This document shows positions 4,160-54,503 of a stretch of 64,000 nucleotides of DNA, piece by piece. Source of the DNA: Eledone cirrhosa (Eukaryota); the NCBI GenBank assembly GCA_964016885.1, contig OZ024764.1, positions 14,694,001 to 14,758,000 of the forward strand, given 5' to 3'. The notes beneath the pieces are model-generated. The model was not told where the DNA came from and did not search any database. It saw only the letters and a list, made by a program, of their open reading frames with translations. Each line of letters begins with the position of its first letter. Positions within the stretch are counted from its first letter, which is position 1. Made by a program: the position numbers and the translations under genes.

Positions 4160-4330
4160 GAAGGTAAAGTGGCCCTGATTACAGGTCTAGTATTGAAGCC
4201 TTTCGGCTTGAGCCTTGCTGATGCCGACAGAGTTCCTGTGGTAGTTTTGGTAGCACAGGTGACATTTTATTGTGTTTAGGTACCGGCTAGTGCGGACACA
4301 GAGAGCACAACCAGGTGGTGAGCTGGCAAC
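4160..4330 (-). pseudogene. Decayed PHD finger fragment, probably a retrotransposon N-terminus (copies ~17210-17375 and ~29630-29790)
   Basis: Reads CALCVRTSRYLNTIKCHLCYQNYHRNSVGISKAQAERLQY*TCNQG. Three single-base changes (TCT>TGT, TAG>TGG, GGC>TGC) restore C4HC3 and the conserved Trp. Confidence 0.65.
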
Positions 4331-4503
4331 GCCCAAGTGTAGAGGGCCAGCTTTGAAATTCGAGCGACGGAGTGAACTAGTAAAAGAGGCAGGGTAAGCA
4401 GCATTGGTTCTAACGGTGGGACTAGAACGGAGGTTGGGTGGTGCTGGGGGTGGGCTAACAGCTAACAGTTGTAGGAGTGGTGGGGGTTTGCTAGGATTAA
4501 TTT

Positions 4504-6120
4504 TTACATCTGTCTGTGAACTCTTGAAAAAGCAACATACAATTGTCCAGGGTTAAATACTTGCTCAGGGAGGAACAGACCCACTTTATCATGTATTTGA
4601 CCATGGTTCTTGTTGATTGTCATGGCATATGACAGTCTTAATGGAAACTGGGGTCATTCCAAAGTAAAAGGGATGTTGGCACCACTGGGGGATAACTTCA
4701 GTCTTGGGATCAAAACACACCTGCCCATCAAAGGACCATAGATATGAGAAGCTTTGATAAAATGTTTATGCAGTTCTACTACTTCTAATCTTGTGCCATT
4801 ACATAATCTGTTCTGGATTGAAATATTCCATAGAAGCATTATTATTGATCCTGCTTATAATTGGAGTTTGTGAGGCGGCATCCCAGAAGGTGTAAGCAAG
4901 TTCATTTAGCTTGAACCAGGCAGCAAGGGTCCCTGCATTTCTACCACAACCTGAGCATTGCCTCTTTGAAAGTAAACTCTGTTTGTTCTCCAGGTGTGTG
5001 GCTAGGCTGTATACTGTATGTGATGTACCATGAAGCTTAAATTCCGAGAGACACGACACTGCTTCTGGCTGAGACACATACCTGCAACAAAGATAGGTTC
5101 TTATTTCATCATGGTTGTGTTGGTTCTGAGCCTCATTAGGTAATGCATTATTCGTTACTTCTATAGATGTACAATCATGCCCCATGTAACATATTTAAAG
5201 AGGTACTTGACACTTTTTACAGAAGCGCAAACTTCAACATTAATATGTGCACAATATTTCTTAAGCAAAAAGGCATTAAATGGCACAACATTCCTGTTAT
5301 CTACTGAATGTCATCCAATTTACACTGCAGTTCCTGTCTTGCACCTCCTGTACTCTGGGTATCCATTTAGGTTCAATAATGTTTCCCTTCTGTAGGTTTT
5401 TGGATAGTTCTTTTGGAAAAATCCATTTTGTATAAATGGGAGAAAAGGGTTTCCAGAACCACATGGCCCGTGGATCATAAACTTTTAAACCTGCTCATGT
5501 AGTACTGGATCATCTTCCAATGCAGGTATTTCTGCTGACACGATTCTGTCAATGTCTTCTCTGTTTCTTATCTTGTCTTCATTTTTTAAGGCTCAGTGTT
5601 ATCATCTGTTTAGATAATTCATTAAACCATTATACTCATCCACTCACAATTGGGCTTGATTGTTCTTCAAATATTGAAGCCTGCATCCCTCTACTTTCAT
5701 ATAGGCATCCACTAAATACTGCTAAAATAATTTACCTGCCCTATATATCGCACTAAATCCTCCTCTATATGCTATACAGTATATGTAATACTCCTGCATT
5801 GTCAGTCTATTGCAAACACAGGTCCTGCATTCCTCTCCATGGCACTATGCCACCAAAATTCACCATTATCGGTCGGTCTTGAGGTCCAAGTGGCATGAAT
5901 TATGTGATATTTTCTGAGGAGGATGGACTTTAGGAAAGATGATAATATCTCTTTGTACAGGTGGTGTGCCCTCAATCCCCCACAAAACAACAGCTATCAT
6001 TACTAGTTGGTAAATTAGAGCAGCTCATATCTGATCCTCTTCTAAATCTTAATTCACAGTTCTGTACACGACAATTTTCTCTTCTTGCACTTTGCTGTTT
6101 GAGATGAAACAAGATAGCAA
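4504..6120 (-). pseudogene. Helitron Rep/helicase remnant, internally deleted
   Basis: Rep-region motifs GKLF*QYLVDAYMKVEGCRLQYL, MIHGPCG, HINVEVC and [20 protein letters not shown]1 C-terminal motifs [28 protein letters not shown] and [10 protein letters not shown]. Stops and frameshifts present. Confidence 0.92.
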
Positions 6121-11947: not shown

Positions 11948-13310
11948 CCCCTTTGATATAAAAACAATCCGAGTCTTGTAAAAGTGTTATTACTGTAATA
12001 TAAAGTAGAAACCCTTTATTTCAACAAAGCTGAGATGCAGCGAACATCAAAGCAAACCCCAAAATGTAAACAAACTTCTCGCAGGTGCTGCCAGATACAC
12101 GATAACATGTGTATACGAAGTGTAACTGAGTTGGGTCGTATTATATGACTTTCAAATTGACCCCTATTATATTCAAATTATCCCCTGTGGGGCGTGCACC
12201 CCACGTTGAGAATCCCTCATAAATAAATATATGTGAGTGTGTTGCTATGACTGCTATTTCTAGCAGGTTTACTGCAGTCCTGTAGACGCACAACAAAAAC
12301 CGGAAGTGGCAGCCATTAAAAAACTTTGGCTTAAAATCAGGCAAAAGTTTTTTAACAATTTGCCAAGAAAGATAACTCTTGTCTTACTTAATCGCAAAAA
12401 TCGAGGCAAAAATTTTGCGGGTGTGCAGTTTGTTTGGTGTATTTGACTGCTATTTCTAGCATATATGGACACTTTAGAAATAGCAGCGAAACATAAGAAA
12501 GAAGGACACACACGTATATATATATATATACATATATATATGCACAGATACATACATTTAAATATATATATTTATATATACATACACGCGCGCACACACA
12601 CATACGTAGATATGGGTGTGTGTATAGCTGGTATATATATATATGTATGGGTGAGTGTATAGCTGGTATATATATATATATATATATATATATAGGTGTG
12701 TGTCCTTCTTTCTGCTGTTTTCCGTTTTTCGCTGCTATTTCTAAAGTGTCCATACATGCTAGAAATAGCAGTCAAATACACCAAACAAACTGCACACCCG
12801 CAAAATTTTTGCCTCGATTTTTGCGATTAAGTAAGTCAAGAGTTATCTTTCTTGGCAAATTGTTAAAAAACTTTTGCCTGATTTTAAGCCAAAGTTTTTT
12901 AATGGCTGCCACTTCCGGTTTTTGTTGTGCGTCTACAGGACTGCAGTAAACCTGCTAGAAATAGCAGTCATAGCAACACACTCACATATATTTATTTATG
13001 AGGGATTCTCAACGTGGGGTGCACGCCCCACAGGGGATAATTTGAATATAATAGGGGTCAATTTGAAAGTCATATAATACGACCAAGCTTCCAGATACAC
13101 TTCGTATACACATGTTATTTGAAGTTTGTTTTGATCATCGCTGCATCGCAGCTTTGTTTAAATAAAGGGTTTCTACTTTATATTACAGTAATAAAAGTTT
13201 TACTTCGTCTACACATGTTATCGTGTATCCGGCTGCACCTATGGGCTGTTTGTTTATACTTTGGTGTTTATTTTGATCATCGCCTCATCGCAGGTTTGTT
13301 TAATTAAAGG
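11948..13310. mobile_element. Foldback element: ~500-600 bp inverted arms around a microsatellite centre
   Basis: Identical mirror ORFs at 12141-12344(-) and 12874-13077(+). No transposase. Confidence 0.8.
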
Positions 13311-26698: not shown

Positions 26699-29600
26699 AC
26701 ATAAACCTAATTTTTAAACGTTGAGGTGGGGCATGGAGCAAAAAAGGTTTGGAACTACTGAAGACAACAAATCATCGTTTTTATTAATGTAAACAAACTT
26801 CTCGCAGGTGCTGTCAGATACACGATAACATGTGTATACGAAGTGTAACAGGGAGTTGGGTCGTATTATATGACTTTCAAATTGACCCCTATTATATTCA
26901 AATTATCCCCTGTGGGGCGTGCACCCCACGTTGAGAATCCCTCATAAATAAATATATGTGAGTGTGTTGCTATGACTGCTATTTCTAGCAGGTTTACTGC
27001 AGTCCTGTAGACGCACAACAAAAACCGGAAGTGGCAGCCATTAAAAAACTTTGGCTTAAAATCAGGCAAAAGTTTTTTAACAATTTGCCAAGAAAGATAA
27101 CTCTTGTCTTACTTAATCGCAAAAATCGAGGCAAAAATTTTGCGGGTGTGCAGTTTGTTTGGTGTATTTGACTGCTATTTCTAGCATATGTGGACACTTT
27201 AGAAATAGCAGCGAAAAACGGGAAACATAAGAAAGAAGGACACACACGTATATATATATATATATATAATTATGTATCTGTATATACATATATATATGCA
27301 CAGATATATACATTTAAATATATATATTTATATATACATACACGCGCGCACACACACCTATACGTAGATATGGGTGTGTGTATAGCTGGTATATATATAG
27401 GTGTGTGTCCTTCTTTCTGCTGTTTTCCGTTTTTCGCTGCTATTTCTAAAGTGTCCATACATGCTATAAATAGCAGTCAAATACACCAAACAAACTGCAC
27501 AACCGCAAAATTTTTACCTCGATTTTTGCGATTAAGTAAGACAAGAGTTATCTTTCTTGGCAAATTGTTAAAAAACTTTTGCCTGATTTTAAGCCAAAGT
27601 TTTTTAATGGCTGCCACTTCCGGTTTTTGTTGTGCGTCTACAGGACTGCAGTAAACCTGCTAGAAATAGCAGTCATAGCAACACACTCACATATATTTAT
27701 TTATGAGGGATTCTCAACGTGGGGTGCACGCCCCACAGGGGATAATTTGAATATCCCCCTCTTTATATCAATTAGCACTAACTCTCTCCCTCTCTATATC
27801 TACTACACGGCACTCTCTTCCAATACCCCTCTCTATATCAAGTAACACCAAACTCTCCCCCTCTCTATATATTAAGCACTAAGTCAGGAATTTTTTTCTT
27901 CTTTCGTGCAGAGAGAGTAAAGTTGATTAAATCTACTGCAGTGAATTACTGGTATTTTATGTAATAAAAATTAAAATTTACTATTTGTCTTCGTTTAATT
28001 TTCGTTTTTCTTTACATAGTTTCGTTTCGTTAAATGTCTCCAGAATTTGTTTTTACTTTTACCGGATATTGAAGGTGTAAACTTGGTGTTGTCTAGAAAC
28101 GTGTTAGAAATATTTTTCTTTTAATTGTGAAGAATTTAACCGCAAAGTAAGTTTTTTTTACTGTTTATTTGTGGCTGGGACAACGTATGGTATGTGTTAA
28201 TGTAAATGGTGAAGGTTTAAAGATTCTTTTTACAACTGAAAATCAGTTTGTTGTTGCTGCTAATTACTTAACGCATGGAATAGATTTAAAAAATACACGA
28301 TTGTTTCTCGGAAGAGAGGAAGAAGAAACAAATCACAGAAGCGGGTAGCACACACATTTGGGACCACATACAACACAAAAACAGGTAATCCACACATCTG
28401 GGACCACATACAACACACCAGCAGGTAATACATACATCTAGGACCACATAAGCAGGTAATACACACATCTAGGACCACATACAACACACAAGCAGGTAAT
28501 ACACACATCTAGGACGACATACAACCAAAGGCAGGCGAAAGGGGTGGACAAACGAGCTGCTACTAGAGCAAAAGATAACAGTATCGCGAGGAGCACTGGG
28601 AAACCTCTCTAATGATTTTTTAGGCAAGCCAGCACGTCTGCAGCGTTACCTCGGGCGATGGCGAGGCTGAGGAGCTGGAACAACCAAGTGCCCTCACGAG
28701 CTTCACCAGTCACCTTCGTCAGGCTAGCCGCCAGTGAAGATAAGAATCTCGCAGTCAGTATCCCGACTCCCCCAAACGCCACAGGCTGGAAAATGTAGTT
28801 GGCCGACAGATCACATTATTACTTAACAGTGATAGATATTCTGTCTAAAGGAGGGGCGTACAACAGGCGGCCCGCGGGCCACAATCGAGCCCACCTGACC
28901 AGTCAGAGTGGCCCGCAATGACTGTTGTAGGCTTATTTAGAATTTTTTCCATACCCGTAATACTTCTGTTAGTTGACCTATACTAAAGGACTTCACTGAT
29001 AGGGTTATATGTGTTATAGTTTCCCAGTTGACCTATACTAAAGGACTTCACTGATAGGGTTATATGTGTTATAGTTTCCCAGTTGACCTATACTAAAGGG
29101 CTTCACTGATAGAGTTATATGTGTTATAGTTTCCCAGAGGGCTTCACTGATAGGGTTATATGTGTTATAGTTTCCCAGTTGACCTATACTAAAGGACTTC
29201 ACTGATAGGGTTATATGTGTTATAGTTTCCCAGTTGACCTATACTAAAGGACTTCACTGATAGGGTTATATGTGTTATAGTTTCCCAGTTGACCTATACT
29301 AAAGGACTTCACTGATAGGGTTATATGTGTTATAGTTTCCCAGTTGACCTATACTAAAGGGCTTCACTGATAGAGTTATATGTGTTATAGTTTGAAACAA
29401 ACTACCCGTATCAGTTATTATACTTTTATAACACCGCTATATTACCTACATGAAAGAGGTAAATATTTATTTCTCTTGTCTTCTTAAATGTATAGAACAT
29501 TTTTCTTATATATATTCTTAACATAGCTAGGACCGTTTATTATTTACTAGTCTCTACTCCTAGGACTTTGCTGGTCTCATGTCCCCTCCATCAACACACA

Positions 29601-29965
29601 CTCGGTAGAAAGCTGGTCGTCGGAGGTAAAGTGGCCCTGATTACAGGTCTAGTATTGAAGCCTTTCGGCTTGAGCCTTGCTGATGCCAACAGAGTTCCTG
29701 TGGTAGTTTTGGTAGCACAGGTGACATTTTATTGTGTTTAGGTACCGGCTAGTGCGGACACAGAGAGCACAACCATGTGGTGAGCTGGCAACGACCAAGT
29801 GTAGAGGGCCAGCTTTGAAATTCGAGCGACGGAGTGAACTAGTAAAAGAGGCAGGGTAAGCAGCATTGGTTCTAACGGTGGGACTAGAACGGAGGTTGGG
29901 TGGTGCTGGGGGTGGGCTAACAGCTAACAGTTGTAGGAATGGTGGGGGTTTGGTAGGATTAATTT

Positions 29966-31455
29966 TTACATCTGTCTGTGAACTCTTGAAAAAGCAACAT
30001 ACAATTGTCCAGGGTTAAATACTTGCTCAGGGAGGAACAGACCCACTTTATCATGTATTTGACCATGGTTCTTGTTGATTGTCATGGCATATGACAGTCT
30101 TAATGGAAACTGGGGTCTTTCCAAAGTAAAAAGGGATGTTGGCACCACTGGGGCTAACTTCAGTCTTGGGATCAAAACACACCTGCCCATCAAAGGACCA
30201 TAGATATGAGAAGCTTTGATAAAATGTTTATGCAGTTCTACTACTTCTAATCTTGTGCCATTACATAATCTGTTCTGGATTGAAATATTTCATAGAAGCA
30301 TTATTATTGATCCTGCTTTTAATTGGAGTTTGTGAGGCGGCATCCCAGAAGGTGTAAGCAAGTTCATTTAGCTTGAACCAGGCAGCAAGGGTCCCTGCAT
30401 TTCTACCACAACCTGAGCATTGCCTCTTTGAAAGTAAACTCTGTTTGTTCTCCAGGTGTGTGGCTAGGCTGTATACTGTATGTGATGTACCATGAAGCTT
30501 AAATTCCGAGAGACACGACACTGCTTCTGGCTGAGACACATACCTGCAACAAAGATAGGTTCTTATTTCATCATGGTTGTGTTGGTTCTGAGCCTCATTA
30601 GGTAATGCATTATTCGTTACTTCTATAGATGTACAATCATGCCCCATGTAACATATTTAAAGAGGTACTTGATACTTTTTACAGAAGAGCAAACTTCAAC
30701 ATTAATATGTGCACAATATTTCTTAAGCAAAAAGGCATTAAATGGCACAACATTCCTGTTATCTACTGAATGTCATCCAATTTACACTGCAGTTCCTGTC
30801 TTGCACCTCCTGTACTCTGGGTATCCATTTAGGTTCAATAATGTTTCCCTTCTGTAGGTTTTTGGATAGTTCTTTTGGAAAAATCCATTTTGTATAAATG
30901 GGGGAAAAGGGTTTCCAGAACCACATGGCCCGTGGATCATAAACTTTTAAACCTGCTCATGTAGTACTGGATCATCTTCCAATGCAGGTATTTCTGCTGA
31001 CACGATTCTGTCAATGTCTTCTCTGTTTCTTATCTTGTCTTCATTTCTTAAGGCTCAGTGTTATCATCTGTTTAGATAATTCATTAAACCATTATACTCA
31101 TCCACTCACAATTGGGCTTGATTGTTCCTCAAATATTGAAGCCTGCATCCCTCTACTTTCATATAGGCTTCCACTAAATACTGCTGAAATAATTTACCTG
31201 CCCTATATATCGCACTAAATCCTCCTCTATATGCTATACTGTATATGTAATACTCCTGCATTGTCAGTCTATTGCAAACACAGGTCCTGCATTCCTCTCC
31301 ATGTCACTATGCCACCAAAATTCACCATTATGGGTCGGTCATGAGGTCCAAGTGGCATGAATTATGTGATATTTTCTGAGGAGGATGGTCCTTAGGAAAG
31401 ATGATAATATCTCTTTGTACAGGTGGTGTGCCCTCAATCCCCCACAAAACAACAG
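29966..31455 (-). pseudogene. Helitron remnant, copy 3, truncated at a MITE
   Basis: Matches copies 1 and 2 up to aacagcta, then switches to the MITE TIR. Confidence 0.9.
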
Positions 31456-31725
31456 CTAGAGCATTAGGCGGGTAGCGAAAGTAGCAATAATGGCCCGTGT
31501 AAGTGGGCCATCTCTCTATATCGGCTTGTACAGGTAAGAGAAGAAGGGAGCATCCCCCTCTCTCTGTGCTCCCTGGCAGAAAGGTCGCACACTTTATACG
31601 GGGGTGTGTGTGACCCCAAAAGGCTGCCTCTCTATTGAGGACTTAATTTTTTATATTCCTTTTTAATCACTCGTTAAATGTTTGTACTTGATTTTTGTAA
31701 AAAATTCCCCCGCCTAATGCTCTAG
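31456..31725. mobile_element. 270-bp MITE (mirror copy 42641-42910)
   Basis: Perfect 17-bp TIRs ctagagcattaggcggg / cccgcctaatgctctag. Confidence 0.85.
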
Positions 31726-32419
31726 TGGCAAATAAATCGCAAAAAAACAAACAATAAATAAATCTATATTTCTTTTAACGGCTAAAAAAAAGGGAATGTA
31801 AATTTGTTGGAATAGCCTCATACATTGAAGTAAGCAGCAACTACAGCACGTAAGCAGCATTTAGTCCACTAAAATTGGATATCGCCATTTACTTTCTACT
31901 ACGAAAAATATATTAACCTTCTCTATGCAGGAAAATACCTTTCCTATTTTCTTTTAAGAAACAAAATATGTATAGCTACAGTTGTATTTTTTTCTTCTCC
32001 ATTTCTTTCACAACGAAGCACGGCAGCTTCATTTCTCGCACACGTGTGTGAATAAAAAACGTTAAACACTTGGATTTTACTAAATTTTAGGTTGATCAGT
32101 TATTGAAACATTTTCTGTATATTTCCCTCCATAATGTTAGAAATAATTATTTAAACGTTAGGTTTTTTTTTTTGCTTCGGCTTAGGGTATGTATGTGCCA
32201 TAGTATCTCCTGTGGCCAACTAAGCCCTGGTCATCATAAGCTTAGAGGGTGAAAGAAGCAGTTTTAGGTCATATACTTCACATAGCATCTCCTATGGCCA
32301 CCTAACACCCTGGTCAATGTCCCATAGTTTCTCCCACGCTAGCATGGGTCGTTTTGCTTATATATATATATATATGTATGTGTGTGCAATTATATTTGTC
32401 CATCAATTGTGTATACACA

Positions 32420-32527
32420 GTTTGAGGTTGGACCTTCGTAAAGACCTGAAGATTCATCTGTATTGCTGTACGGGTCTGAGACTTGGTCACTGACCAAGAG
32501 ATTCACTCAGATGGTGGATGGGTGCTA
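32420..32527 (+). pseudogene. LINE RT thumb fragment (mirror ~41800-41910; a second fragment at ~33575-33660)
   Basis: LLYGSETWSLTKRFTQMVDGC and LLYGAETWPHTKSIDSRALRTI. Confidence 0.7.
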
Positions 32528-34172
32528 AATATATATATTTATACACATTTTTCTTTTCCTGAAGTGTGTAGACATTTTTTTTGTATACACACTTATTGGC
32601 ATTAGCTGTCTTGTTACTTAGAAGAAATGAAAAAGCAAAAGTTTGGTTTATTTCACATGTTCGTCGCTAGATAAGGAAGTTTATTTACATTCCTTTGAAG
32701 ATGTCAGTAATATTTTCCTGTGTAGAGAAGGTTTAATTCTGTTTCTTAGTAAAAAAGAGAATCAGAAGTATATATGTAAGAGGGCTGACTGACCAAATGG
32801 AAAGAAACAATGCAGTTATTAGTAAGGAGAGTTGAAATTAATGCATGCAAGATTTCACTGTTCTAGCATCACTCCTTCATAGTCAGCCTATGAGCTTTTC
32901 AGTTGACCCTCGTTTGTACAGAAGAAGGTTTATATAAGTGTAACTTTGTGTGTGTCTAAAGAAGATTTAGTTTTGTTTATTAGACAAAGAAAGTATGTAT
33001 ATATAAATGTAACAGATAGAATGCCTTCATTTCAGCTGTCTGAATTCAAATCCCATCAAGGCCAACTTTGCCTTTCATCCATTCAAGGTTGATAAAAAAA
33101 GTACCAGTCTAGTACTGGGGTGAATTCTTCCTCTACACTTCTCTAGAAGAAATCCGCTGTATTCAGACCTGGGCTCTGCCAGGTTTTAAAAAGAGCCCTA
33201 GAAACACTGTATGTCAATGCGTTGCCTCTATGACTCCCTTGGGAGTTACGGGTCCATACATATAACTCTCACAGCTTGGAAGTTCTGTATATAATTCTTT
33301 AAAAACATTTCATCAGTACACTCAGCTGAGGAGTTAATCCTGCGATAGGCCAGTGTCCTATCCAGGGAGAGTCTTATACTCTCAGACACTTAATTCCAAA
33401 GAAACTGGTGAGAAGCTGAGAACAGATTTTATATATACTATATTTAGGTTTAATCAATACATATATTGATGATTGGAATCATGGTCTTAAGATTACCCAA
33501 ATCGATACTAACTATTACAAATACAGATCTGTCTAAGGCTATGTTACCTACATATTAATTGTTCTGAAAAGATGCATCAGTCTTCTCCTCTATGGAGCAG
33601 AAACGTGGCCCCACACAAAGTCGATTGATAGCAGAGCCCTGAGGACCATCTAAAACATCAGCCCACAGCCTTACTCTCGTTCAACACAATAGCACCTGGT
33701 AGGCTCTACCCATGATGATGCCGGTCTAGATATACAAAATACTCGAATATAAGGTGAGCCTCCTCCCTATCTTATGTCTAAGAAGTGGGCAAAAATGCGA
33801 ACCTTATTTACGTAGAATTTGAAGTTGGCGAAAATGGTCCTTGCTACAAAACTATTGACTCCCTATATAAGTCAACCCCTTACTACATATTCCCTGGCTT
33901 CTATTCGTGTAAATCCCGTTATATATGTAGAAAACACTAGCAGTTCCTTAATGGCTATATATCCCGTTATATTTATATAGAAAGAGAAACGGAAAGAAAG
34001 CGAGATAACACTCGGAATATGTCGTGTTATCTTGCTTTCTTTCCGTTTCTTTTTTTTTTAAAAAGAAGTAAAATGTTAGCTATAAGTATGCCTATTTGAC
34101 TCTGTAGAATTGCGGCTTGTGCGTGGCGCTGCACGTAGCGTTTCTGGCTTCGCTGTCGTACTTCGGTATGGC

Positions 34173-35249
34173 ATGACCACTCGATCGTGTCTGAAGTTCG
34201 AATCGTTGCGGGGTCGGCCGGGACCGTTGCAGGCTGGCTTTATGCTGGCCTGCTCTCCCGCCTCGCATGAGTTTTTGCCAAACAATTTGACGAGAGTTAT
34301 TTGCCCTTTGTTGACATTGAACTACTTCCGGTTTGTGGAACTCTTCTTCCTTTGTTGTCATTTCTTGAAGCTGTAACATCATTCTATTTACTCTGGGACT
34401 ATTAACGATATCTGTTTGGATTTTACGTGTAAAGAGGTATGTAAAGTTTTATTTGCCGTTTATACACACATTATTGAGACACAAAAGTAAGTTGCCATGT
34501 CTTTTAAAGAAACAAAACTAAATATATACACGCAGCTACCTCTTCTAACTAAACATACATGTTACCCTCCTCTATTATGAAACAAAACTAACCATGATCT
34601 GTATATATACACCTCTTCTAACATGTTACAACTAAATCTTCTCTCGATACTATATACATACTTGTAAGGAAATATAACCAAGCTTCCTCTCTATACACAT
34701 TTTATCTTCTGTATATAAACCTTATACCTGAATACACAGATATTCTATATACAAGAAGACACTTTTTCACGTCAATACACAAACACTTCAGGCATATTTA
34801 TGTATTAGCCGTAAATTTATTCTAAACCATGTAGAGGAAGAATCCTGGGGACATACGTACACATGAAGCTATATTCATATATAAACCGTCTCCCTTCTAT
34901 CATAACAGATACTTATGAGGCGCAATATACAAACTTGTTCATACTGGAATAATAAACATGAAACTAAACCTTCTCTAGACATATGAATATAGAAGCTAAA
35001 CCATACAGTTATATTTTATATCTAACGAAGCATGGTAGCTCCATTACTCTGCCGTAACACTCCTTACTACTACTTCTAGCATCCTCACCTGCTTGATAGC
35101 TACATCATCCATATATAAACGTTCTTCACTAGATACAAAACTAAACCTTTATATATACACAACTAACCTATTTTATATTCCTAAGGAAGAGCACCAGACC
35201 TGGAGACTACTACAACCCGATCTCAAGAAGAAAGGTAAATAAATTGTGA
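34173..35249 (+). pseudogene. Left-arm copy of the candidate small membrane-protein gene; first donor mutated, different last exon (35186-35249)
   Basis: Same ATG and 66-nt exon (34371-34436). Donor is GAGAGT instead of GTGAGT. Last exon follows actaac..ttttatattcctaAG and ends at TGA overlapping AATAAA. Confidence 0.35.
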
Positions 35250-36044
35250 AATAAAAGAATAAACCAGTATTTTCCTTTGTTGCCTTATTATTTACTCCCT
35301 GTATATATACACACACTAGACACCTCTTACACTGTAGGAAGACAAAAACCTTCTGTCACTGTATACTAGATTCATATTATATAAATTATTTCCTAGATAC
35401 ACCTATTAGAAACAAGCCATCTCTATATACAGGTAAATAACATCAATGTAGACATGTCTGTATATAAGGAACTGTATTCTATAGAACATATCTAAACCCA
35501 CATTGTGTGTGTCTCTTTATATTATACACGTGTATGTAGAAACCTGGAAGTGATCATACATATATAAGATAAGAGGTTTTGATCTGTACATACAGATCAA
35601 TACATTCTCGCTAGATACTACACATATGTCTCTTAGGAAACTACTACTATTGTTCTTCTAGTTGTGTATAAGGATCTCACAGTAGAACGTGTACATGCTT
35701 CCTAAGAAGCAAGAGAGCTAACTGTATAAATACAAAGAAATTTAGTGTTCTTTACATACACACAAAGCTTACTTCATGTCTATAATTACCTTCTTCTCTA
35801 TATTGAAAGAAGTACCTCCATTATATATTGAAGTTGTGTTCAATAGAGTACAGTATGTAGAACCATATGTACGCAGTTACCCTGTTCTCCTCTAGACAGG
35901 GATGAACACTTTAGTGTATATAAAGCATATCTTTATTGTAAATTTAGAAGTTACACTACACATATAAAGACAACAACCTACATACATATTAATACCCTTA
36001 TATCTCTAGACTACTGTATTATATAAATATAGCTAAGGAATTAA

Positions 36045-37960
36045 AGATGTATGTATATTTATACATACATATGCATGTATATATACATACATATGTATGT
36101 ATATATATACATATGTATATATACATACGTATGTATATATACATACATACGTATGTATGTATATATACATATGTATCTATGTTTATACATATGTATGTAC
36201 ATACATACGTATGTATGTACATACGTATATATACATACATATGTAAGTACATACGTATGTATGTATATATGTATGTACATACGTATATAAGTACATACGT
36301 ATATGTATATACATACGCATGTATGTATATATATACATACGCTTGTATGTACATACATACGTATGTATATACATACGCATGTATGTACATACATACGCAT
36401 GTATGTACATACATACGTATGTATATACATACGCATGTATGTACATACATACGTATGTATATACATACATATGTATATACATACATACGTATGTATATAC
36501 ATACATACGTATGTATATACATACATACGTATGTATATACATACGTATGTATGTACATACATACATCCGTATGTATATACATACGTACGTATGTACATAC
36601 ATATGTATGTAAGTACATACGCATGTATATACATACATTTGTATGTAAATACATACGTATGTATGTATATACATACATACATACGTATGTAAGTACATAC
36701 GTATGTATGTATATACATACGTATGTATGTACATGCGTATGTATATACATACGTATGTATATACATACGTACGTATATATATACATACATACGTATGTAC
36801 TTACATACATACGTATGTACTTACATATGTATGTACATACATATGTATGTACATAGATACGTATGTACTTACATACGTATGTACATACATACGTATGTAC
36901 TTACATACGTATGTATGTACATACATACGTATGTACTTACATATGTATGTACATACATACGTATGTATGTACATACATCCGTATGTATGTACATACGTAT
37001 GTATATACATACATATGTATATACATACGTATGTACTTACATACGTATGTATATACATACATACGTATGTATTTACATACAAATGTATGTATATACATGC
37101 GTATGTACATACGTACGTATATACATACATACGTACGTATATACATACATACGTATGTATGTACATACGTACGTATGTATATACATACATACGTATGTAC
37201 TTACATACATACGTATGTACTTACATATGTACGTACATACATACGTATGTACATACATACGTATGTACTTACATACGTATGTACATACATACGTATGTAC
37301 TTACATACGTATGTATGTACATACATACGTATGTACTTACATACGTATGTACATACGTATGTACTTACATATGTATGTACTTACATATGTATGTACATAC
37401 ATACGTATGTATGTACATACATATGTATATACATACGTATGTACTTACATATGTATATACATACATACGTATGTATGTACATACATACATACGTATGTAT
37501 ATACATACATACGTATGTATGTATATACATACATACGTATGTATTTACATACATACGTATGTATTTACATACAAATGTATGTACGTACGTATGTATATAC
37601 ATACGTATGTATGTATATACATGCGTATGTATATACATACATATGTATGTACATACGTACGTATATACATACATACGTACGTATGTATGTAAATACGTAC
37701 GTATGTATATACATACATACGTATGTACTTACATATGTATGTATGTACATACATACGTATGTACATACATACATACGTATGTACTTACATATGTATGTAT
37801 GTATATACATACGTATGTACATACATACATATGTATGTACATACATACGTATGTATGTATATACATACATACGTATATACCTACATATGTATGTACATAC
37901 ATACGTATGTATACACATATGTGTATACATACATATGTATATATACATACATATGTATGT
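36045..37960. repeat. Alternating purine/pyrimidine, self-complementary satellite (tatg/cata/tacg)
   Basis: Read directly; flanked by the direct repeat ttatataaatatagctaagga at 36019 and ~37961. Confidence 0.95.
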
Positions 37961-38783
37961 TTATATAAATATAGCTAAGGAGTTAAACTTTTTTCTCTAG
38001 ATAGAGATAAGTATGTCTATTCTATAGGATACTATTACCTTAAAACCATGTGTATATATACACTTACTTCTATAGAATCCATACATATTAACACCCTTCT
38101 ATCTCTAGGCATATGTATACATACAGAAAGAAATGGCCTCACTAGAATACTGCATTATATACATTACTTTCATGAAAGATGATTCGAACTGAATTCATAC
38201 TTCTATTCCTATATACATACTGGGAGAGATATAGAATACAAATTTATTCTATATACAGAAGGAAATAAACTTACTAGAATACTCTATATATACACATTAT
38301 AAATGTTTATAATATGAAACTTCTTTATTAATACCTATATACTTACTGGTAAGTATGAGAGAGATATAGAATATCCACATAACCTCTTACAGGAGATATA
38401 GAATACCTATATACACAGTTTCCATTCTCAAAGAAACTTCTCTATAGCACCACACTTACTTCTTTCAGTAAGAAGGATGTTTCTTACTGGGATTCTATAG
38501 TGTAGATACACATTAATTAATCTAGTCTATATATACACTTCTTTCAAGAAGGATGTTTCTCACTAATTACATAATAATTGAATTCTCTCACATGTTAATA
38601 CCTTTTTATCTCTAGGCATGTGTTTAACAATCCACTAGTTATATATACACAGCTGTTAATTCCTATATATTTAATATGAATGAAAGTTAAACGATCTACA
38701 TGTAAGATACTACCTGTGTATATATATAAGAAACGAAAATGTGAAATAAAGATCAATAAATAAACTACATTTTGTTGTTGGAG

Positions 38784-40154
38784 TTATTTTATTTCTTGAG
38801 ACGACTGTGTGTATCTACACACTAAGTTGAGCTGGCGGAGATCTTCAACATACCTGGAAAGAAGCAGAGGGTATTAATAAAAACAATCCAGATTACACAG
38901 CTCTAACACCAATACTTTTCTAGAGGCAGAAATTAAACCTCTTTATCATGAACAGTTTAGTTTCTTAGGAGAGTGGGTATAGGGCTGTGAAATACAGTTT
39001 CTTATATGCCTCTAGATAAGGTATTACTGTATATATGGGTTTTTTTTTTTATTATAGAGGAGGATAGTAAATATAAGCCTTCTAGATGTTACAGAGGAGT
39101 CTCTACATACAAAAAGTAGATTCTTTGCTGTGTACACACAATATATAGAAGTGTATTATATACACACGTGTGTACAATATTTATATAACAAGGCAGTGTA
39201 TTCTATAAAAAAACTATGTATGGGGAGTTGTTTTCCTCTATTGAGAAGGATAGTGAATATAATGTCTTCTACATACAATAAATAGATGCCTTGATAAAAT
39301 ATCCAGTTTTATGTAAGTATCCTCGGGAAAAGTAGTAGAGAAGAGGGTTTTAACTTTGCCTTGTGTGTATGTAGATGCTGCATATATACGATACTTCGAA
39401 GTGTGTTTATGTATAGAGAGAGGGTCTGTATTCTATATACTACAGTTTCTTATATAGCTCCGGATACTGTGTATAATGAGGAGATATACCTTTCTTCTAA
39501 GTAAGTATATACAGAGAAAGTGTAATAGAGATACGATTATAATATAAATATATAGTTGATATGATGTGTGCAAGAGAGAATGCTGAGTTGGAGTAAAGGT
39601 GGTGATGCCGAGGTAACTCGACGTAGAAATTACGATGGTATAGTATAGAGAGGAAAGTAACATGTATGTTTAGTTAGAAGAGGTAGCAGCGTGTATATAT
39701 TATTTGTTTTGTTTTGTTTCTCGGAAGGAGGTTTAGTTCTGTGAAGAGTGTTTAGAATAAATTTAAAAGACATGGCAACTAAAACATTACAAGAATGTAT
39801 ATTTCCAAGATAATGAAATGTATTTTTGTGTCTCAATAATATCCGTGAGTGTGAATAAAACTTTACATACCTCTTTACACGTAAAATCCAAACAGATATC
39901 GTTAATAGTCCCAGAGTAAATAGAATGATGTTACAGCTTCAAGAAATGACAACAAAGGAAGAAGAGTTCCACAAACCGGAAGTAGTTCAATGTCAACAAA
40001 GGGCAAATAAATCCATTCAAAGGGAGATAACTCACGTCAAATTGTTTGGCAAAAACTCATGCGAGGCGGGAGAGCAGGCCAGCATAAAGCCAGCCTGCAA
40101 CGGTCCCGGCCGACCCCGCAACGATTCGAACTTCAGACACGATCGAGTGGTCAT
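38784..40154 (-). CDS. Candidate 3-exon, 84-aa single-pass membrane protein (exons 40154-40036, 39936-39871, 38853-38784)
   Basis: Donors GTGAGT and GTATGT, polypyrimidine acceptors, both introns phase 2, one open frame. Hydrophobic IILFTLGLLTISVWIL followed by RVKR. No homology recognised. Confidence 0.42.
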
Positions 40155-41938
40155 GCCATACCGAAGTACGACAGCGAAGCCAGAAACGCTACGTGCAGCG
40201 CCACGCACAAGCCGCAATTCTACAGAGTCAAATAGGCATACTTATAGCTAACATTTTACTTCTTTTTAAAAAAAAAAAGAAACGGAAAGAAAGCAAGATA
40301 ACACGACATATTCCGAGTGTTATCTCGCTTTCTTTCCGTTTCTCTTTCTATATAAATATAACGGGATATATAGCCATTAAGGAACTGCTAGTGTTTTGTA
40401 CATATATAACGGGATTTACACGAATAGAAGCCAGGGAATATGTAGTAAGGGGTTGACTTATATAGGGAGTCAATAGTTTTGTAGCAAGGACAATTTTCGC
40501 CAACTTCAAATTCTACGTAAATAAGGTTCGCATTTTTGCCCACTTCTTAGACATAAGATAGGGAGGAGGCTCACCTTATATTCGAGTATTTTGTATATCT
40601 AGACCGGCATCATCATGGGTAGAGCCTACCAGGTGCTATTGTGTTGAACGAGAGTAAGGCTGTGGGCTGATGTTTTAGATGGTCCTCAGGGCTCTGCTAT
40701 CAATCGACTTTGTGTGGGGCCACTTTCTGCTCCATAGAGGAGAAGACTGATGCATCTTTTCAGAACAATTAATATGTAGGTAACATAGCCTTAGACAGAT
40801 CTGTATTTGTAATAGTTAGTATCGATTTGGGTAATCTTAAGACCATGATTCCAATCATCAATATATGTATTGATTAAACCTAAATATAGTATATATAAAA
40901 TCTGTTCTCAGCTTCTCACCAGTTTCTTTGGAATTAAGTGTCTGAGAGTATAAGACTCTCCCTGGATAGGACACTGGCCTATCACAGGATTAACTCCTCA
41001 GCTGAGTGTACTGATGAAATGTTTTTAAAGAATTATATACAGAACTTCCAAGCTGTGAGAGTTATATGTATGGACCCGTAACTCCCAAGGGAGTCATAGA
41101 GGCAACGCATTGACATACAGTGTTTCTAGGGCTCTTTTTAAAACCTGGCAGAGCCCAGGTCTGAATACAGCGGATTTCTAGAGAAGTGTAGAGGAAGAAT
41201 TCACCCCAGTACTAGACTGGTACTTTTTTTATCAACCTTGAATGGATGAAAGGCAAAGTTGGCCTTGATGGGATTTGAATTCAGACAGCTGAAATGAAGG
41301 CATTCTATCTGTTACATTTATATATACATACTTTCTTTGTCTAATAAACAAAACTAAATCTTCTTTAGACACACACATAAAGTTACACTTATATAAACCT
41401 TCTTCTGTACAAACGAGGGTCAACTGAAAAGCTCATAGGCTGACTATGAAGGAGTGATGCTAGAACAGTGAAATCTTGCATGCATTAATTTCAACTCTCC
41501 TTACTAATAACTGCATTGTTTCTTTCCATTTGGTCAGTCAGCCCTCTTACATATATACTTCTGATTCTCTTTTTTACTAAGAAACAGAATTAAACCTTCT
41601 CTACACAGGAAAATATTACTGACATCTTCAAAGGAATGTAAATAAACTTCCTTATCTAGCGACGAACATGTGAAATAAACCAAACTTTTGCTTTTTCATT
41701 TCTTCTAAGTAACAAGACAGCTAATGCCAATAAGTGTGTATACAAAAAAAATGTCTACACACTTCAGGAAAAGAAAAATGTGTATAAATATATATATTTA
41801 GCACCCATCCACCATCTGAGTGAATCTCTTGGTCAGTGTCCAAGTCTCAGACCCGTACAGCAATACAGATGAATCTTCAGGTCTTTACGAAGGTCCAACC
41901 TCAAACTGTGTATACACAATTGATGGACAAATATAATT

Positions 41939-42007
<69 letters not shown>

Positions 42008-42910
42008 AGCAAAACAACCCATGCTAGCGTGGGAGAAACTATGGGACATTGACCAGGGTGTTAGGTGGCCATAGGAGATGCTATGTGAAGTATATGACCT
42101 AAAACTGCTTCTTTCACCCTCTAAGCTTATGATGACGAGGGCTTAGTTGGCCACAGGAGATACTATGGCACATACATACCCTAAGCCGAAGCAAAAAAAA
42201 AACCTAACGTTTAAATAATTATTTCTAACATTATGGAGGGAAATATACAGAAAATGTTTCAATAACTGATCAACCTAAAATTTAGTAAAATCCAAGTGTT
42301 TAACGTTTTTTATTCACACACGTGTGTGAGAAATGAAGCTGCCGTGCTTCATTGTGAAAGAAATGGAGAAGAAAAAAATACAACTGTAGCTATACATATT
42401 TTGTTTCTTAAAAGAAAATAGGAAAGGTATTTTCCTGCATAGAGAAGGTTAATATATTTTTCGTAGTAGAAAGTAAATGGCGATATCCAATTTTAGTGGA
42501 CTAAATGCTGCTTACGTGCTATAGTTGCTGCTTACTTCAATGTATGAGGCTATTCCAACAAATTTACATTCCCTTTTTTTTAGCCGTTAAAAGAAATATA
42601 GATTTATTTATTGTTTTTTTTATTTGCGATTTATTTGCCACTAGAGCATTAGGCGGGGGAATTTTTTACAAAAATCAAGTACAAACATTTAACGAGTGAT
42701 TAAAAAGGAATATAAAAAATTAAGTCCTCAATAGAGAGGCAGCCTTTTGGGGTCACACACACCCCCGTATAAAGTGTGCGACCTTTCTGCCAGGGAGCAC
42801 AGAGAGAGGGGGATGCTCCCTTCTTCTCTTACCTGTACAAGCCGATATAGAGAGATGGCCCACTTACACGGGCCATTATTGCTACTTTCGCTACCCGCCT
42901 AATGCTCTAG

Positions 42911-43688
42911 CTGTTGTTTTGTGGGGGATTGAGGGCACACCACCTGTACAAAGAGATATTATCATCTTTCCTAAAGACCATCCTCCTCAGAAAATACCAC
43001 ATAATTCATGCCACTTGGACCTCATGACTGACCCATAATGGTGAATTTTGGTGGCATAGTGACATGGAGAGGAATGCAGGACCTGTGTTTGCAATAGACT
43101 GACAATGCAGGAGTATTACATATACTGTATAGCATATAGAGGAGGATTTAGTGCGATATATAGGGCAGGTAAATTATTTTAGCAGTATTTAGTGGATGCC
43201 TAAGAAATATTGTGCACATATTAATGTTGAAGTTTGCGCTTCTGTAAAAAGTGTCAAGTACCTCTTTAAATATGTTACATGGGGCATAATTGTACATCTA
43301 TAGAAGTAACGAATAATGCATTACCTAATGAGGCTCAGAACCAACACAACCATGATGAAATAAGAACCTATCTTTGTTGCAGGTATGTGTCTCAGCCAGA
43401 AGCAGTGTCGTACCTCTCGAAATTTAAGCTTCATGGTACATCACATACAGTATACAGCCTAGCCACACACCTGGTGAACAAACAGAGTTTACTTTCAAAG
43501 AGGCAATGCTCAGGTTGCAGTAGAAATGCAGGGACCCTTGCTGCCTGGTTCAAGCTAAATGAACTTCTGAACTTGCTTACACCTTCTGGGATGCCGCCTC
43601 ACAAACTCCAATTAAAAGCAGGATCAATAATAATGCTTCTATGGAATATTTCAATCCAGAACAGATTATGTAATGGCACAAGATTAGA
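42911..43688 (+). pseudogene. Helitron remnant, inverted copy
   Basis: ORF 43279: [17 protein letters not shown]...[43 protein letters not shown]. Confidence 0.9.
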
Positions 43689-43829: not shown

Positions 43830-44599
43830 TTACCCCTTTAGCATTCACATTACTCTATATATACTATTGTACTTTCACAGTAAAGGCTTTATCTCACATA
43901 ATATCGAATCTATGAGATTTCGATATTATTTATTTTCAGAACAATACTTTAACATCAGTATGTAGTGACCTACATTCCGCGGGCTCACATACATTCTCTG
44001 TGCGTGATTTGGCTCAGTTCAGCCAATCAGCGCCAGTAGAAGAGGATGTATCCCTACGCGCCCTGAGGAAGAAATTCCCCGCGAAGATTTGAAGAATCTC
44101 CAGCTTGTACCGGAAACTTCAAGCCAGCAACACGCATAATGTAACACTGATATTGCACCCCTAGCCTCGCCGGCTTAACGGCGCAATGGCACATTCCCTT
44201 TTGTAACCTCTTTTTATTGTAACTTCAACCATATAAATAAACAAACATTTCATCTCTAATTACTGCGGTTCAAGTCGTTGTTATGTTACTCGTGTCTCAA
44301 TGACATCTTTAATCCATGCTGCTGGAATTGGCGACATGACGAAAGGAATATTGTAAATAGATGGTAAATAGATCGAGGGACCTTCCCTCACGTCTATGTC
44401 AACAAGATAATCCAACGAGGATACTATCACTTACCACACTGGCAACTAACGACCACTGATTCTACCACCCCGCTAAAGTGGCGATAACATCTATAACCAA
44501 TACTGCTAAAAGTATGAGTGGTTAATTAGGGCTGGTTTGAACAGAAAGAGGTGAGAGAATTCTGGCCGGTTACAGCTGGTTTAAATGCTAAGGGGTTAA
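43830..44599. mobile_element. piggyBac-type MITE interrupted by a solo LTR
   Basis: Ends ttac-ccctttagcatt ... aatgctaagggg-ttaa. Same family as 53205-54503, in opposite orientation. Confidence 0.75.
43961..44510 (+). mobile_element. Probable solo LTR, 550 bp
   Basis: Begins TGTAG and ends CTAAA (one change from CTACA). AGTA duplication on both sides, CCAAT and AATAAA inside, absent from the sister MITE. Confidence 0.7.
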
Positions 44600-46795
44600 G
44601 CCCTTCAAGATGTGTATGACGAGAAAGAAGCCATTTTAGAGTCGTATGACATAGATGATAACTGGAATTTATTATGTGACAACTTACTGCAGGCTGCTGA
44701 AGACACTTGTGGCTGGAGCAGAGCTCCGACCAGACAGAGAGTGACCTGGTGGTGGGACAACAAGGTAGATAAGGCCATTAGCGACAAAAGACTAGCATGG
44801 AACACTTGGATAAATGGTGGGAGTAGAGACCGATGCACAGCCGCTAAGAAAGAAGCTAGACGTCAGGTGTACTTAGCACGCAGGGAGGCTGAGAATAGGA
44901 GGGTTGCCAATGTTCTGTGACGGGAAGATCAAAGACGTGCAGTGTTCCGCATTGCAAGCCAGTGTGTCAGTGTAAATCGGGATGTTGTTGGAGATAAATG
45001 TGTCCGGAATGATGCTGGTGTACTCAGTGTCAATAATGATCAGAAAAAGGAGGCCTGGAAATGCCATTATGAGAGGCTGATGAATGTGGAGAATGAATGG
45101 GAGAGAGAGAAACTACCCACATTTGATCCAACAGAGGGACCAGCTATTGAGATTGATGACTATAGGGTCAAAGAGGCAATTAAAGAAAGGAAAAATGGTA
45201 AGGCAGCTGGACCATCAGGGAGAGTTGCTGAGATGCTGAAGGCGTGAGGAGAAGTCGGTACTAAACTGGTTGCAAGTATAATCAATCAAGCTATATATGG
45301 CGGAGTCATACCCAAAGACTGGTGCAGCAGTATTCTCATAAATTGCTACAAAGGTAAAGGGGATGCTCTGGAGCAGATCAATTATAGAGGCATAAAACTG
45401 ATGGATCAGGTTATGAAAGTGGCAGAAAAGATATTAGAGCAACTAATTAGAGAAAGAGTCAAACTAGATGAGATGCAGTTTGGTTTTGTGCCTGGGAAAA
45501 GTACAACCGATGCCCTCTTCTTAGTGAGACAACTACAAGAGAGGTTCTTAGAGAAGAATAAGCCATTATACTTAGCTTTTGTTGACCTAGAGAAAGCCTT
45601 TGATAGTGTACCCCAATCTGTCATCTGGTGATCCCTAAGGAAACTAGGTGTTGAGGAATGGCTTATGAGGACAGTGCAAGCTTTGTACAGAGGTGCTGTC
45701 TGTAAAGTGAGGGTAGGAATGGAGTTTAGTGAGGAATTCCAGATACAAGGAGGAGTCCATCAGAGTTCGGTCCTCAGCCTGCTCTTGTTCATTATAGTCC
45801 TCCAAGCCATAACAGAGGAGTTTAAGACTAGCTGCCCATGGTAACTTCTCTATACTGACAATCTGGTTTTTATAGCAGAATCAGTAGAGGAGCTAGAGAA
45901 TAAATTCTGGCTATGGAAACAGCAGTTGGAATTAAGAGGACTGAGAGTGAACCTAGCTAAAACAAAAGTGTTGATAAGTAGAAAAAAGGACAAAACTCTG
46001 ATGGCCATGTTCGATATGCAGAAAAGGAATTGGCATACATTCTATAAAATGTACACAATGCAGATCTTGGGTACACACGAAATGTAGTGGGATAGCAGGC
46101 AAACTAACAGATAGGGAAAACTACGTATGCAGTAGATGTACAGGGAAATTTGACAGTAGAAGTTGCATTGATAGACACATTTTTCAAATGCAAGTAGGCT
46201 CTATAAAAGTGGTTGATAGCTTCAGTACCTAGGTGATCAGATTAGTATAGGAGGGGGGTGTTCCGAGGCCATAGTATCTAGAATAAGGACGGGCTGGAAG
46301 AAGTTTAGGGAGCTGCTTCCTCTGGTGACAAAGAAGGGTTTCTCCCTGCATACAAAAGGTTGGTTGTTTGATGCCTGTGTAAGATGCACAATGTTGCATG
46401 GTAGTGAGACATGGGCAGCAACTACAGAGGATATGCAAAGGCTGGAGAGAAATGAAGCAAGCATGCTCCATTGGATGTGCAATGTCAATGTGCGTGAAAG
46501 ACCAAGCATGGACGAGTTGAGAGTGAAACTCTATAAGAAGGATAAACTGCAGTGTGCGGGAGAAAAGACTGCGTTGGTATGGCCATGCGATGCGTATGCA
46601 GGATTACCGCAGGGTGAAGAAGTGCCAAGTAATCCCAGTGGGAGGAAGACCAAGGAAGATATGGGCAGAGGTAGTGAGAGCTGACCTCAGATCGTTGAAG
46701 TTCAGAGGAGATGATGAAGGAGAGATGCTGCGCTGAAGAGGATCTGTCCCACCCTGATAAGCAGGGAAAAGTGGATGTATAATGATGATGATATA
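44600..46795 (+). mobile_element. 5'-truncated RTE-clade LINE, reverse transcriptase pseudogene
   Basis: TWWWD, KAAGPSG, YRGIKL, QFGFVPGKSTTDA, AFVDLEKAFD, degenerate YADD (YTDN), MLHGSETW, RLRWYGH. Cys-rich insert, multiple stops, (atg)n tail. Confidence 0.93.
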
Positions 46796-47628: not shown

Positions 47629-48295
47629 CAGTGATCCCCAACCTTTAATTAAACAAACCTGCGATGATCAAATTAAACACCAAAATGTAAACAAACAGCC
47701 CATAGGCGTTGCTGGATACACAATAACATGTGTAGACGAAGTAAAACTTTTATTACTGTAATATAAAGTAGAAACCCTTTATTTAAACAAAGCTGCGATG
47801 CAGCGATGATCAAAACGTAAACAAACTTCTCGTAGGTGCTGCCAGATACACGATAACATGTGTATACGAAGTGTATCTGGAAGTTTGGTCGTATTATATC
47901 ACTTTCAAATTATCCCCTGTGGGGCGTGCACCCTACGTTGAGAATCCCTCATAAATAAATATATGTGAGTGTGTTGCTATGACTGCTATTTCTAGCAGGT
48001 TTACTGCAGTCCTGTAGACGCACAACAAAAACCGGAAGTGGCAGCCATTAAAAAACTTTGGCTTAAAATCAGTGAAAAGTTTTTAAACAATTTGCCAAGA
48101 AAGATAACTCTTGTCTTACTTAATCGCAAAAATCGAGTCAAAAATTTTGCGGGTGTGCAGTTTGTTTGGTGTATTTCACTGCTATTTCTAGCATGTATGG
48201 ACACTTTAGAAATAGCAGCGAAACACGGGAAACATCAGAAAGAAGGAAACACACCTATATATATATTTATGGATATGTGTGTGTTTGTTTATATG

Positions 48296-48369
<74 letters not shown>

Positions 48370-48506
48370 TATATATATATACAGATATATATAATTAAAT
48401 ATATATATTTATATATATACATAATTATGTATATACATATTATGTATATATTTATATATATACATAATTTATATATATATATACACACACACAAATATAC
48501 ATATAC

Positions 48507-48539
<33 letters not shown>

Positions 48540-49220
48540 CGTGTGTGTCCTTCTTTCTGCTGTTTTCCGTGTTTCGCTGCTATTTCTAGTGTCAATACAG
48601 CTAGAAATAGCAGTCAAATACACCAAACAAACTGCACACCCGCAAAATTTTTGCCTCGATTTTTGCGATTAAGTAAGACAAGAGTTATCTTTCTTGGCAA
48701 ATTGTTTAAAAACTTTTCACTGATTTTAAGCCAAAGTTTTTTAATGGCTGCCACTTCCGGTTTTTGGTGTGCGTCTACAGGATTGCAGTAAACCTGCTAG
48801 AAATAGCAGTCATAGCCACACACTCATATATATTTTATATCAGGGATTCTGAACGAGGGGTGCACGCCCCACTGGGGTTAATTTGAATATAATAGGGGTC
48901 AATTTGAAAGTGATATAATACGACCCAGTTACACTTCGTCTACACATGTTATCGTGTATCTGGCAGCACCTGCGAGAAGTTTGTTTACGTTTTGAAGTTT
49001 GTTTTGATCATCGCTGCATCGTAGCTTTGTTTAAATAAAGGATTTCTACTTTCTATTACAGTAATAACACTTTTACAAGATTCTGTTTGTTTTTATATTA
49101 AAGGGGGACATAAACATATTTTAAATGTTGAAATATATTTATTTATTTATTTAAGACCTTCTCTCTGTTGTTTACTAAACTTTGAACTCAGCATTTTTCT
49201 GTTCTTCTCTAGGATTCTAG

Positions 49221-53204: not shown

Positions 53205-54503
53205 TTAACCCTTTAGCATTTAAACCAGCCATATCCGGCCAGAATTATCTCACCTCTTTCTGTTCAAACCAGCTATAACCGACTGCTTATACTTATGTTA
53301 ACGTATTGTTCTCAAAATCTCATAGATTCGATGTTATGTGAGATATATAGAGTAATGTAAATGTTATGTGAGATATTATGTAAGGTAAAGCCTTTACTGT
53401 GACAATACAATAGTATATATAGAGTAATGTAAATGTTATGTGAGATATTATGTGAGGTAAAGCCTTTACTGTGAAAATACAATAGTATATATAGAGTAAT
53501 GTAAATGTTATGTGAGGTATTATGTGAGGTAAAGCCTTTACTATGAAAATACAATAGTATATATAGAGTAATGTAAATGTTATGTGAGGTATTATGTGAG
53601 CTAAAGCCTTTACTGTGAAAATATAATTGTATATATAGAGTAATGTAAATGTTATGTGAGATATTATGTGAGGTAAAGCCTTTACTATGAAAATACAATA
53701 GTATATATAGAGTAATGTAAATGTTATGTGAGATATTGTGTGAGGTAAAGCCTTTACTGTGAAAATACAATAGTATATATAGAGTAATGTCAATGTTATG
53801 TGAGATATTAAGTGAGATAAAGCCTTTACTGTGAAAATACAATAGTATATATAGAGTAATGTAAATGTTATGTGAGCTAAAGCCTTTACTGTGAAAATAT
53901 AATTGTATATATAGAGTAATGTAAATGTTGTGTGAGGTATTATGTGAGGTAAAGCCCTTACTGTGAAAATACAATAGTATATATAGAGTAATGTAAATGT
54001 TATGTGAGATATTATGTGAGGTAAAGCCTTTACTGTGAAAATACAATAGTATATATAGAGTAATGTAAATGTTGTGTGAGGTATTATGTGAGGTAAAGCC
54101 TTTACTGTGAAAATACAATAGTATATATAGAGTAATGTAAATGTTGTGTGAGGTATTATGTGAGGTAAAGCCTTTACTGTGAAAATACAATAGTATATAT
54201 AGAGTAATGTAAATGTTATGTGAGATATTATGTGAGGTAAAGCCTTTACTATGAAAATACAATAGTATATATAGAGTAATGTAAATGTTATGTGAGATAT
54301 TGTGTGAGGTAAAGCCTTTACTGTGAAAATACAATAGTATATATAGAGTAATGTCAATGTTATGTGAGATATTATGTGAGGTAAAGCCTTTACTGTGAAA
54401 ATACAATAGTATATATAGAGTAATGTAAATGTTATGTGAGGTAAAGCCTTTACTGTGACAATACAATAGTATATATAGAGTAATGTAAATACTAAAGGCT
54501 TAA
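53205..54503. mobile_element. piggyBac-type MITE with ~16 internal 72-bp tandem units (53335-54490)
   Basis: Ends ttaa-ccctttagcatt ... aatactaaaggc-ttaa. Confidence 0.8.

Follow-up and report, generated by a model that had tools for sequence, protein, structure and literature searches.

The arms of a palindrome in the genome of Eledone cirrhosa are probably kept alike, and were probably lengthened recently, by copying of one arm onto the other. The palindrome lies in a 64,000-nt window, positions 14694001–14758000 of contig OZ024764.1 (C25) of the 3.0-Gb genome; all coordinates below are positions in this window. Its two ~3.3-kb arms face each other across a spacer of 5.4 kb, and each carries a promoter-like element followed by a predicted non-coding exon. 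It is one member of a dispersed family of such convergent pairs, arranged around a (TACA)n satellite, in which sequence variants are shared locus by locus, and in the copy described here the flank of one arm has been exchanged for that of the other.

BLAST aligned 31164–34489 with 43202–39821 at 97.1% identity over 3390 columns, gaps counted, and the outer piece 30246–30729 with 43688–43197 at 96.1%. In a global alignment the arms proper (31164–34453 and 39854–43202) differ by 18 substitutions and eight gaps, one of which is a 40-bp (TA)n expansion. With gaps set aside, 18 substitutions in ~3290 bp give an identity of 99.4%, which is above the 99% used to define palindromes of the sex-chromosome type. 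An initial annotation of the window had placed the inner end of the near-identical arms 17 bp past a splice donor, and the alignments agree with this (GT at 34437–38, and at 39869–70 in the right arm). Within the arm, 31456–31887 is a fragment of an element that has inverted ends and is present in high copy number; a related copy is found at locus L109.

Searching the genome for other copies of the arm showed that the palindrome is multi-copy and not unique. With a 1-kb arm query all 40 scored candidates were of arm length (on C22, C23, C25 and C1777), and a 200-bp core query returned 230 candidates, 40 of which were scored. A 27-nt TATA-like motif from the arm has 132 exact matches in the genome, while a control had none. 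The 100 matches listed are on C12–C23, 65 of them on C23, and none of these 100 is on C1–C11, some of which exceed 350 Mb. The family is present on at least ten chromosome-scale contigs. Neighbours within 15 kb among the 100 listed matches are convergent in 25 cases, tandem in 24 and divergent in six; none of 10000 random-strand runs reproduced the convergence, a significance that is overstated, the copies being related. When 20 divergent loci were chosen by the motif alone, ten had a facing partner inside the 10 kb fetched, five of the ten belonging to one C13 subfamily, in stretches that were unable to reveal head-to-head partners. Eight motif copies appeared single within 10 kb, and when eight loci were extended a single convergent partner turned up, 26 kb away. 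Subfamilies that are only 70–80% alike still have the convergent layout.

Typical copies have arms of ~1.05 kb, equivalent to 33432–34489, with distinct left and right flanks. No coding frame was found in the family core. As in core duplicons, a common core sits in mosaic duplications of variable extent that cluster along particular chromosomes. The family was not described in the literature found on its motifs, octopus PIWI-interacting RNA (piRNA) clusters, foldback elements, long non-coding RNA (lncRNA) and satellites, or convergent transcription, and subscription papers, repeat libraries and supplements may hold it; a term search of 10.1101/2024.12.09.627507 gave no palindrome or inverted repeat. 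In L058–L059, L100, L101 and L025–L026 local tandem arrays have grown repeatedly from the loci's own sequence (units of 48, 79, 40, ~83 and 88 bp).

Each family element has a hairpin, a TATA-like box, a CpG-rich core and usually a donor (Table 1), and 110 of 113 elements are poor in G on their inward strand. The donor is kept in most near copies and in some divergent ones. Further inward, a block with a donor and AATAAA motifs on the left side and one with an acceptor and AATAAA on the right side persist in a subfamily with unalignable introns. These motifs suggest spliced non-coding units, and frames overlapping the predicted first exon (34281–34438) had no Pfam match. A short frame for a membrane peptide that would span the predicted exon junction was considered and rejected, as it has no start codon and indels among the copies break it. 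A repeated GAGTTATCTCCC-type motif lies between core and donor (window 34290–34310, L057, L109, L022) and in most divergent copies; no relevant literature was found on it.

Homogenisation of the arms by arm-to-arm conversion, as proposed in the initial annotation, is well supported within this genome, that is, between paralogs. We used a four-arm site test on the 16 loci with both arms, giving 120 locus pairs; neither pairs nor sites are independent. Informative sites grouped the arms by locus in 1489 cases, by side in 317 and crosswise in 51, and locus-wise sites outnumbered crosswise ones in 115 of the 120 pairs. Dropping four rearranged loci left 66 pairs with 678, 264 and 34 sites, respectively. 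The side signal dominates at 33432–33731, and the locus signal takes over from 33832 inward, with its peak at 34132–34231. Core divergence is 1.3% between the arms of one locus, versus 3.2–4.6% for the same arm between loci. The inner spacer diverges by 2.4–3.5% between loci, so that the core is homogenised and not slow, and purifying selection is no explanation. In the divergent pair L110, which is 80% identical to the window, the arms are 100% identical over 401 bp.

The extra length of the arms at this locus has its own history. A tree of 49 arms places the left arm of the window among right arms, as the sister of the right arm of its own locus (93/74); these two form a trio with the unit C25_26.45 (95/95). 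The left arm is also of right type at 10 of 10 diagnostic changes. Over five segments of 31480–33830 the arms differ at 7 of 2248 bp and have five private sites in common, with the nearest paralog at ~18 differences. Further out, with 6 differences in 295 bp and 11 in 484 bp, the arms are no closer to each other than to paralogs. Left of their arm, C25_29.10 and C25_26.45 have a Helitron fragment, ~9 kb of the array unit that also fills window 1–29000, a third promoter-like element and the left flank. In the window the Helitron fragment, with a weak Pfam match to Pif1_2B on 29966–30289 (E 0.005), is joined at 31458 straight to a right-type flank, which has its own inverted Helitron fragment. 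Among 39 stretches mapped, C22_12.32, C22_13.11 and C23_3.94 show the mirror-image arrangement, with a left-type flank next to inner-right, and C23_8.59 has a right-type flank beside inner-left. The simplest reading is that one conversion or template-switch event between nested inverted homologies made the long arms, and the 3.3-kb length is likely a recent, locus-specific state. Contigs of four sequencing runs over 30000–35950 are short, with none listed spanning the stretch, and are uninformative on the join.

A tandem array of ~13-kb units with Helitron fragments occupies window 1–31458 and extends upstream to ~−17200; its units start near −10135, 3932, 16984 and 29394 and are 97–99.5% alike. 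The ~13-kb unit fills window 1–29000 and also flanks C25_26.45 and C25_29.10.

Several observations weigh against copying between the arms. Locus-wise sharing can be mimicked when neighbouring paralogs of a chromosome exchange sequence. Common variants show no GC bias, with 12 weak-to-strong and 22 strong-to-weak changes versus 87 and 125 among one-sided variants (p 0.58). In the C13 subfamily the pairs are convergent while arm identity is only 88–92%, so that the layout persists with weak homogenisation, and the donor has been lost in several divergent copies. The bootstrap of the arm tree had not settled, and recombination blurs the tree.

Instead, another unit of this chromosome could have donated the right-type flank in an ectopic crossover or conversion, the arms being matched later by shorter arm-to-arm tracts. 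C25_26.45 matches window 29508–34489 in one piece at 96%, all four of the possible combinations of flank and inner side occur in the family, and the join at C23_8.59 is in line with such an exchange. However, in four of the five segments of 31480–33830 (all except 31890–32340) the arms resemble each other more closely than they resemble any paralog fetched, they have the five private sites, and the reciprocal product is absent among the five other C25 units examined. We consider this origin unlikely and prefer copying from the right arm of the same locus.

The initial annotation had offered a foldback transposon of the MuDR kind as its alternative, and a non-autonomous foldback or Mutator-like element, with the arms as terminal inverted repeats and inward promoters, would fit the dispersed copies, the inward-facing promoter-like elements and the variable internal tandem repeats. 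This we regard as very unlikely. No target-site duplication (TSD) was found at three candidate end pairs, apart from one 4-bp ATAT where Mutator elements make 9 bp; possible termini further out were examined in four paralogs plus the window only. The outer arm ends fall within a Helitron PIF1 frame, kilobases of flank beyond the arm ends are common to different loci, and the shared ends are staggered. No transposase frame is present in the arms; in a Pfam scan of 13 frames from the window, Pif1 and RVT_1 were the only matches. At C23_6.40 an inverted repeat of 1.3 kb further out resembles a terminal repeat; it was set aside, as it was found at that locus only and shared ends are staggered.

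Misplacement of right-arm reads on the left during assembly is hardly credible as the source of the extended arm. The region is rich in repeats, adjoins the 13-kb array and has no spanning record, but the arms differ by substitutions and gaps in a smooth gradient, C23_8.59 has the same type of join, and the core family is independent of it; a simple fold-back read artefact is excluded by the 5.4-kb spacer. Least probable of all is that the motif is a dispersed RNA polymerase I (ribosomal DNA) promoter or a structured RNA polymerase III gene and not a polymerase II promoter: the TATA-like box, the GC-rich stretch, the T run and the eight of 17 copies that fold singly with z below −2.3 would fit, but the profile of the family's promoter-like element had no hit at E ≤ 10 in eight stretches around three 18S-bearing regions, Rfam gave sub-threshold hairpin matches and none at gathering score, the 17 cores have no consensus RNA fold, and donor and acceptor motifs are conserved.

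Two units lie near C2H2 zinc-finger exons. Seven such exons on one strand at C25:26392000–26446000 form a cluster whose end is ~7 kb away from a unit; a further exon, at L062:3–1064, is 1.3 kb upstream of another unit. A role of the element as promoter of C2H2 zinc-finger genes was rejected, as no profile hit was found upstream of any of the eight exons in the 5–57 kb fetched.

Inside the arms, 34470–34575 aligns with 39640–39840 at a score of 107 (300 shuffles gave a mean of 25 and a maximum of 36), and 34510–34573 is 91% identical. Thus, of the patchy inner homology described in the initial annotation, the pairing of 34470–34565 with 39657–39840 stands, whereas that of 35044–35092 with 39570–39616 is marginal, with a score of 28 against a shuffle mean of 21.7 and maximum of 31 for the whole inner zone. 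The whole inner zone scores 109 in inverted and 147 in same-strand alignment, so direct inner homology is significant over ~120 bp only. The claim that the inversion is old is nevertheless supported, because a bridging paralog, unit L062 (C23:12.33 Mb), carries the inner-left and inner-right blocks on one strand, in tandem. Of the five inner-left pieces, three align in collinear order with L062 2794–3685 (scores 90, 96 and 129; controls 37–67), and of the six inner-right pieces, three do so with 4231–4963 (100, 114 and 158; controls 42–74); the remaining five are near control level. The two inner flanks appear to have descended from complementary parts of a single longer ancestor, which would explain why they barely align with each other.

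In the model that we favour, an ancestral unit of promoter, exon and intron would have been duplicated in inverted orientation, each side retaining a different half of the intron, and the pair would have spread by segmental duplication along with variable flanks. Breaks in the CpG-rich core, repaired from the opposite arm, would keep the core alike while the spacer drifts. At the present locus, a tract anchored inside on the core arm and outside on the Helitron fragment would have swapped a left flank of ~10 kb for a right flank of ~2 kb. The units are predicted from their sequence to yield short spliced non-coding RNAs on both strands. More speculatively, and we think improbably, the pairs could be old, lineage-wide convergent lncRNA loci. 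Read-through across the satellite into the opposite arm would then give self-complementary RNA with a stem of 0.35–1 kb as well as overlapping antisense RNA, and conversion at the core would preserve the pairing, making the family a dispersed source of double-stranded RNA (a substrate for small interfering RNA, piRNA or ADAR) on small chromosomes.

Table 1. Features of the palindrome and its surroundings (window positions).
Feature	Position	Strand	Basis or remark
Helitron-derived segment (PIF1 helicase fragment), also in upstream tandem array; putative outer conversion anchor	29394..31458	-	copies at 3932, 16984 and upstream of window, 97–99%
Outermost left match to 43197–43688	30246..30729	.	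paralogous piece of a Helitron, without homogenisation; 11 of 484 bp differ (4 from nearest paralog)
Left-only stretch, 434 bp, missing from right copy	30730..31163	.	alignment
Left arm	31164..34453	+	18 substitutions, 8 gaps vs right arm
Right-type flank on left side (paralogs: ~10 kb left-type flank here); probable copy from right arm	31459..33431	+	paralog comparison
Outward-facing block with AATAAA motifs, putatively poly(A)-signal-like; mirror copy 41509–41759	32567..32817	-	78% match in divergent unit L062; also matched by inner-left profile
Core arm common to family, ~1.05 kb	33432..34453	+	at least 40 arm-length matches on C22, C23, C25, C1777
DNA hairpin with 27-bp stem, upstream of TATA-like box	33985..34050	+	−29 kcal/mol, z −10.5, 0/200 shuffles; retained in part by divergent copies
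TATA-like motif, left promoter-like element	34081..34090	+	132 exact matches of 27-nt motif, control 0
GC-rich, CpG-rich core, peak of arm homogenisation	34091..34280	+	CpG observed/expected 0.81–1.76 in 17 copies; left-right 1.3% within locus vs 3.2–4.6% between loci
Predicted non-coding first exon, ends at donor AG/GTATGT (GT 34437–38)	34281..34438	+	sequence
Residual inverted homology to 39640–39840	34470..34575	+	score 107 vs shuffle maximum 36
Inner-left conserved block: donor-like AG/GTAAAT, then AATAAA motifs	35226..35309	+	kept in divergent subfamilies
Central self-complementary (TACA/TATG)n satellite, 1.9 kb	36047..37971	.	sequence
Inner-right conserved block: acceptor TTCCAG/G, predicted exon start 38853, AATAAA 38788–93, + strand AATAAA motifs too	38745..38914	-	36 exact genome matches of 21-nt junction (control 0); kept where intron unalignable
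Right arm with mirror promoter-like element (TATA-like 40237–46, donor 39869–70)	39854..43202	-	alignment
Helitron PIF1 fragment, right end; palindrome ends inside its reading frame, without TSD	43197..43688	+	Pif1_2B E 2.5e-13

Elsewhere in the window, further self-inverted stretches are found at 59074–59680 (97.5%), 47741–49076 (85.5%), 11978–13203 (85.6%) and 26894–27754 (91%). One unit of a 72-bp satellite adjoins the right arm at 43839–43905 and an array of it lies at 53343–54490; the satellite also flanks three other C25 units. A broken reverse-transcriptase element occupies 44600–46684 (RVT_1, E 1e-10), and there are genes for two transfer RNAs, tRNA-Asn(GTT) at 58730–58805 (−) and tRNA-Trp(CCA) at 61853–61926 (+).

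Studies of conversion in palindromes normally deal with a few large sex-chromosome repeats and require several species. In the family described here, a single invertebrate genome contains dozens of small palindromes that are paralogs of one another; their tracts are replicated and datable and have their peak at the CpG-rich promoter-like core, and for one of the tracts both anchors are visible. The persistence of the convergent layout in the 70–80% subfamilies hints at function.

The family resembles several known systems. As in maize Mu/MuDR elements and Pack-MULEs, inward-facing promoter-like elements lie in inverted repeats, here as motifs only; unlike Mu/MuDR, the family has neither TSD, fixed termini nor a mudrA-like frame, and its flanks are common to different loci (PMC3276141). 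With the human core duplicons NPIP and GOLGA8 it has in common a core within mosaic duplication blocks expanded along particular chromosomes, and GOLGA8 cores have been called palindromic (PMC6920530); here the core is a convergent, predicted non-coding pair and not a coding family.

The initial annotation had compared the arms to sex-chromosome palindromes, which are defined by arms >10 kb with identity >99% (10.1101/800185). A Z chromosome is present in cephalopods (PMC10925132). This framing is not supported: the arms are 3.3 kb at this locus and typically ~1.05 kb, and the family, which extends over at least ten contigs, is not confined to a single chromosome. As in the X and Y palindromes of mammals, the inverted arms are closer within a locus than between related loci and the spacer has diverged (10.1101/800185), but here arms of ~1–3.3 kb lie on many chromosomes without a protein-coding gene, and conversion is seen between paralogs and not between species. 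The flip/flop repeat of yeast chromosome XIV occurs at one locus, has a 24-kb spacer and includes coding sporulation genes, whereas the present family has dozens of non-coding units spaced 3–14 kb apart; both are kilobase-scale repeats that are continually homogenised and exchange the sequence adjacent to their arms (PMC9731477).

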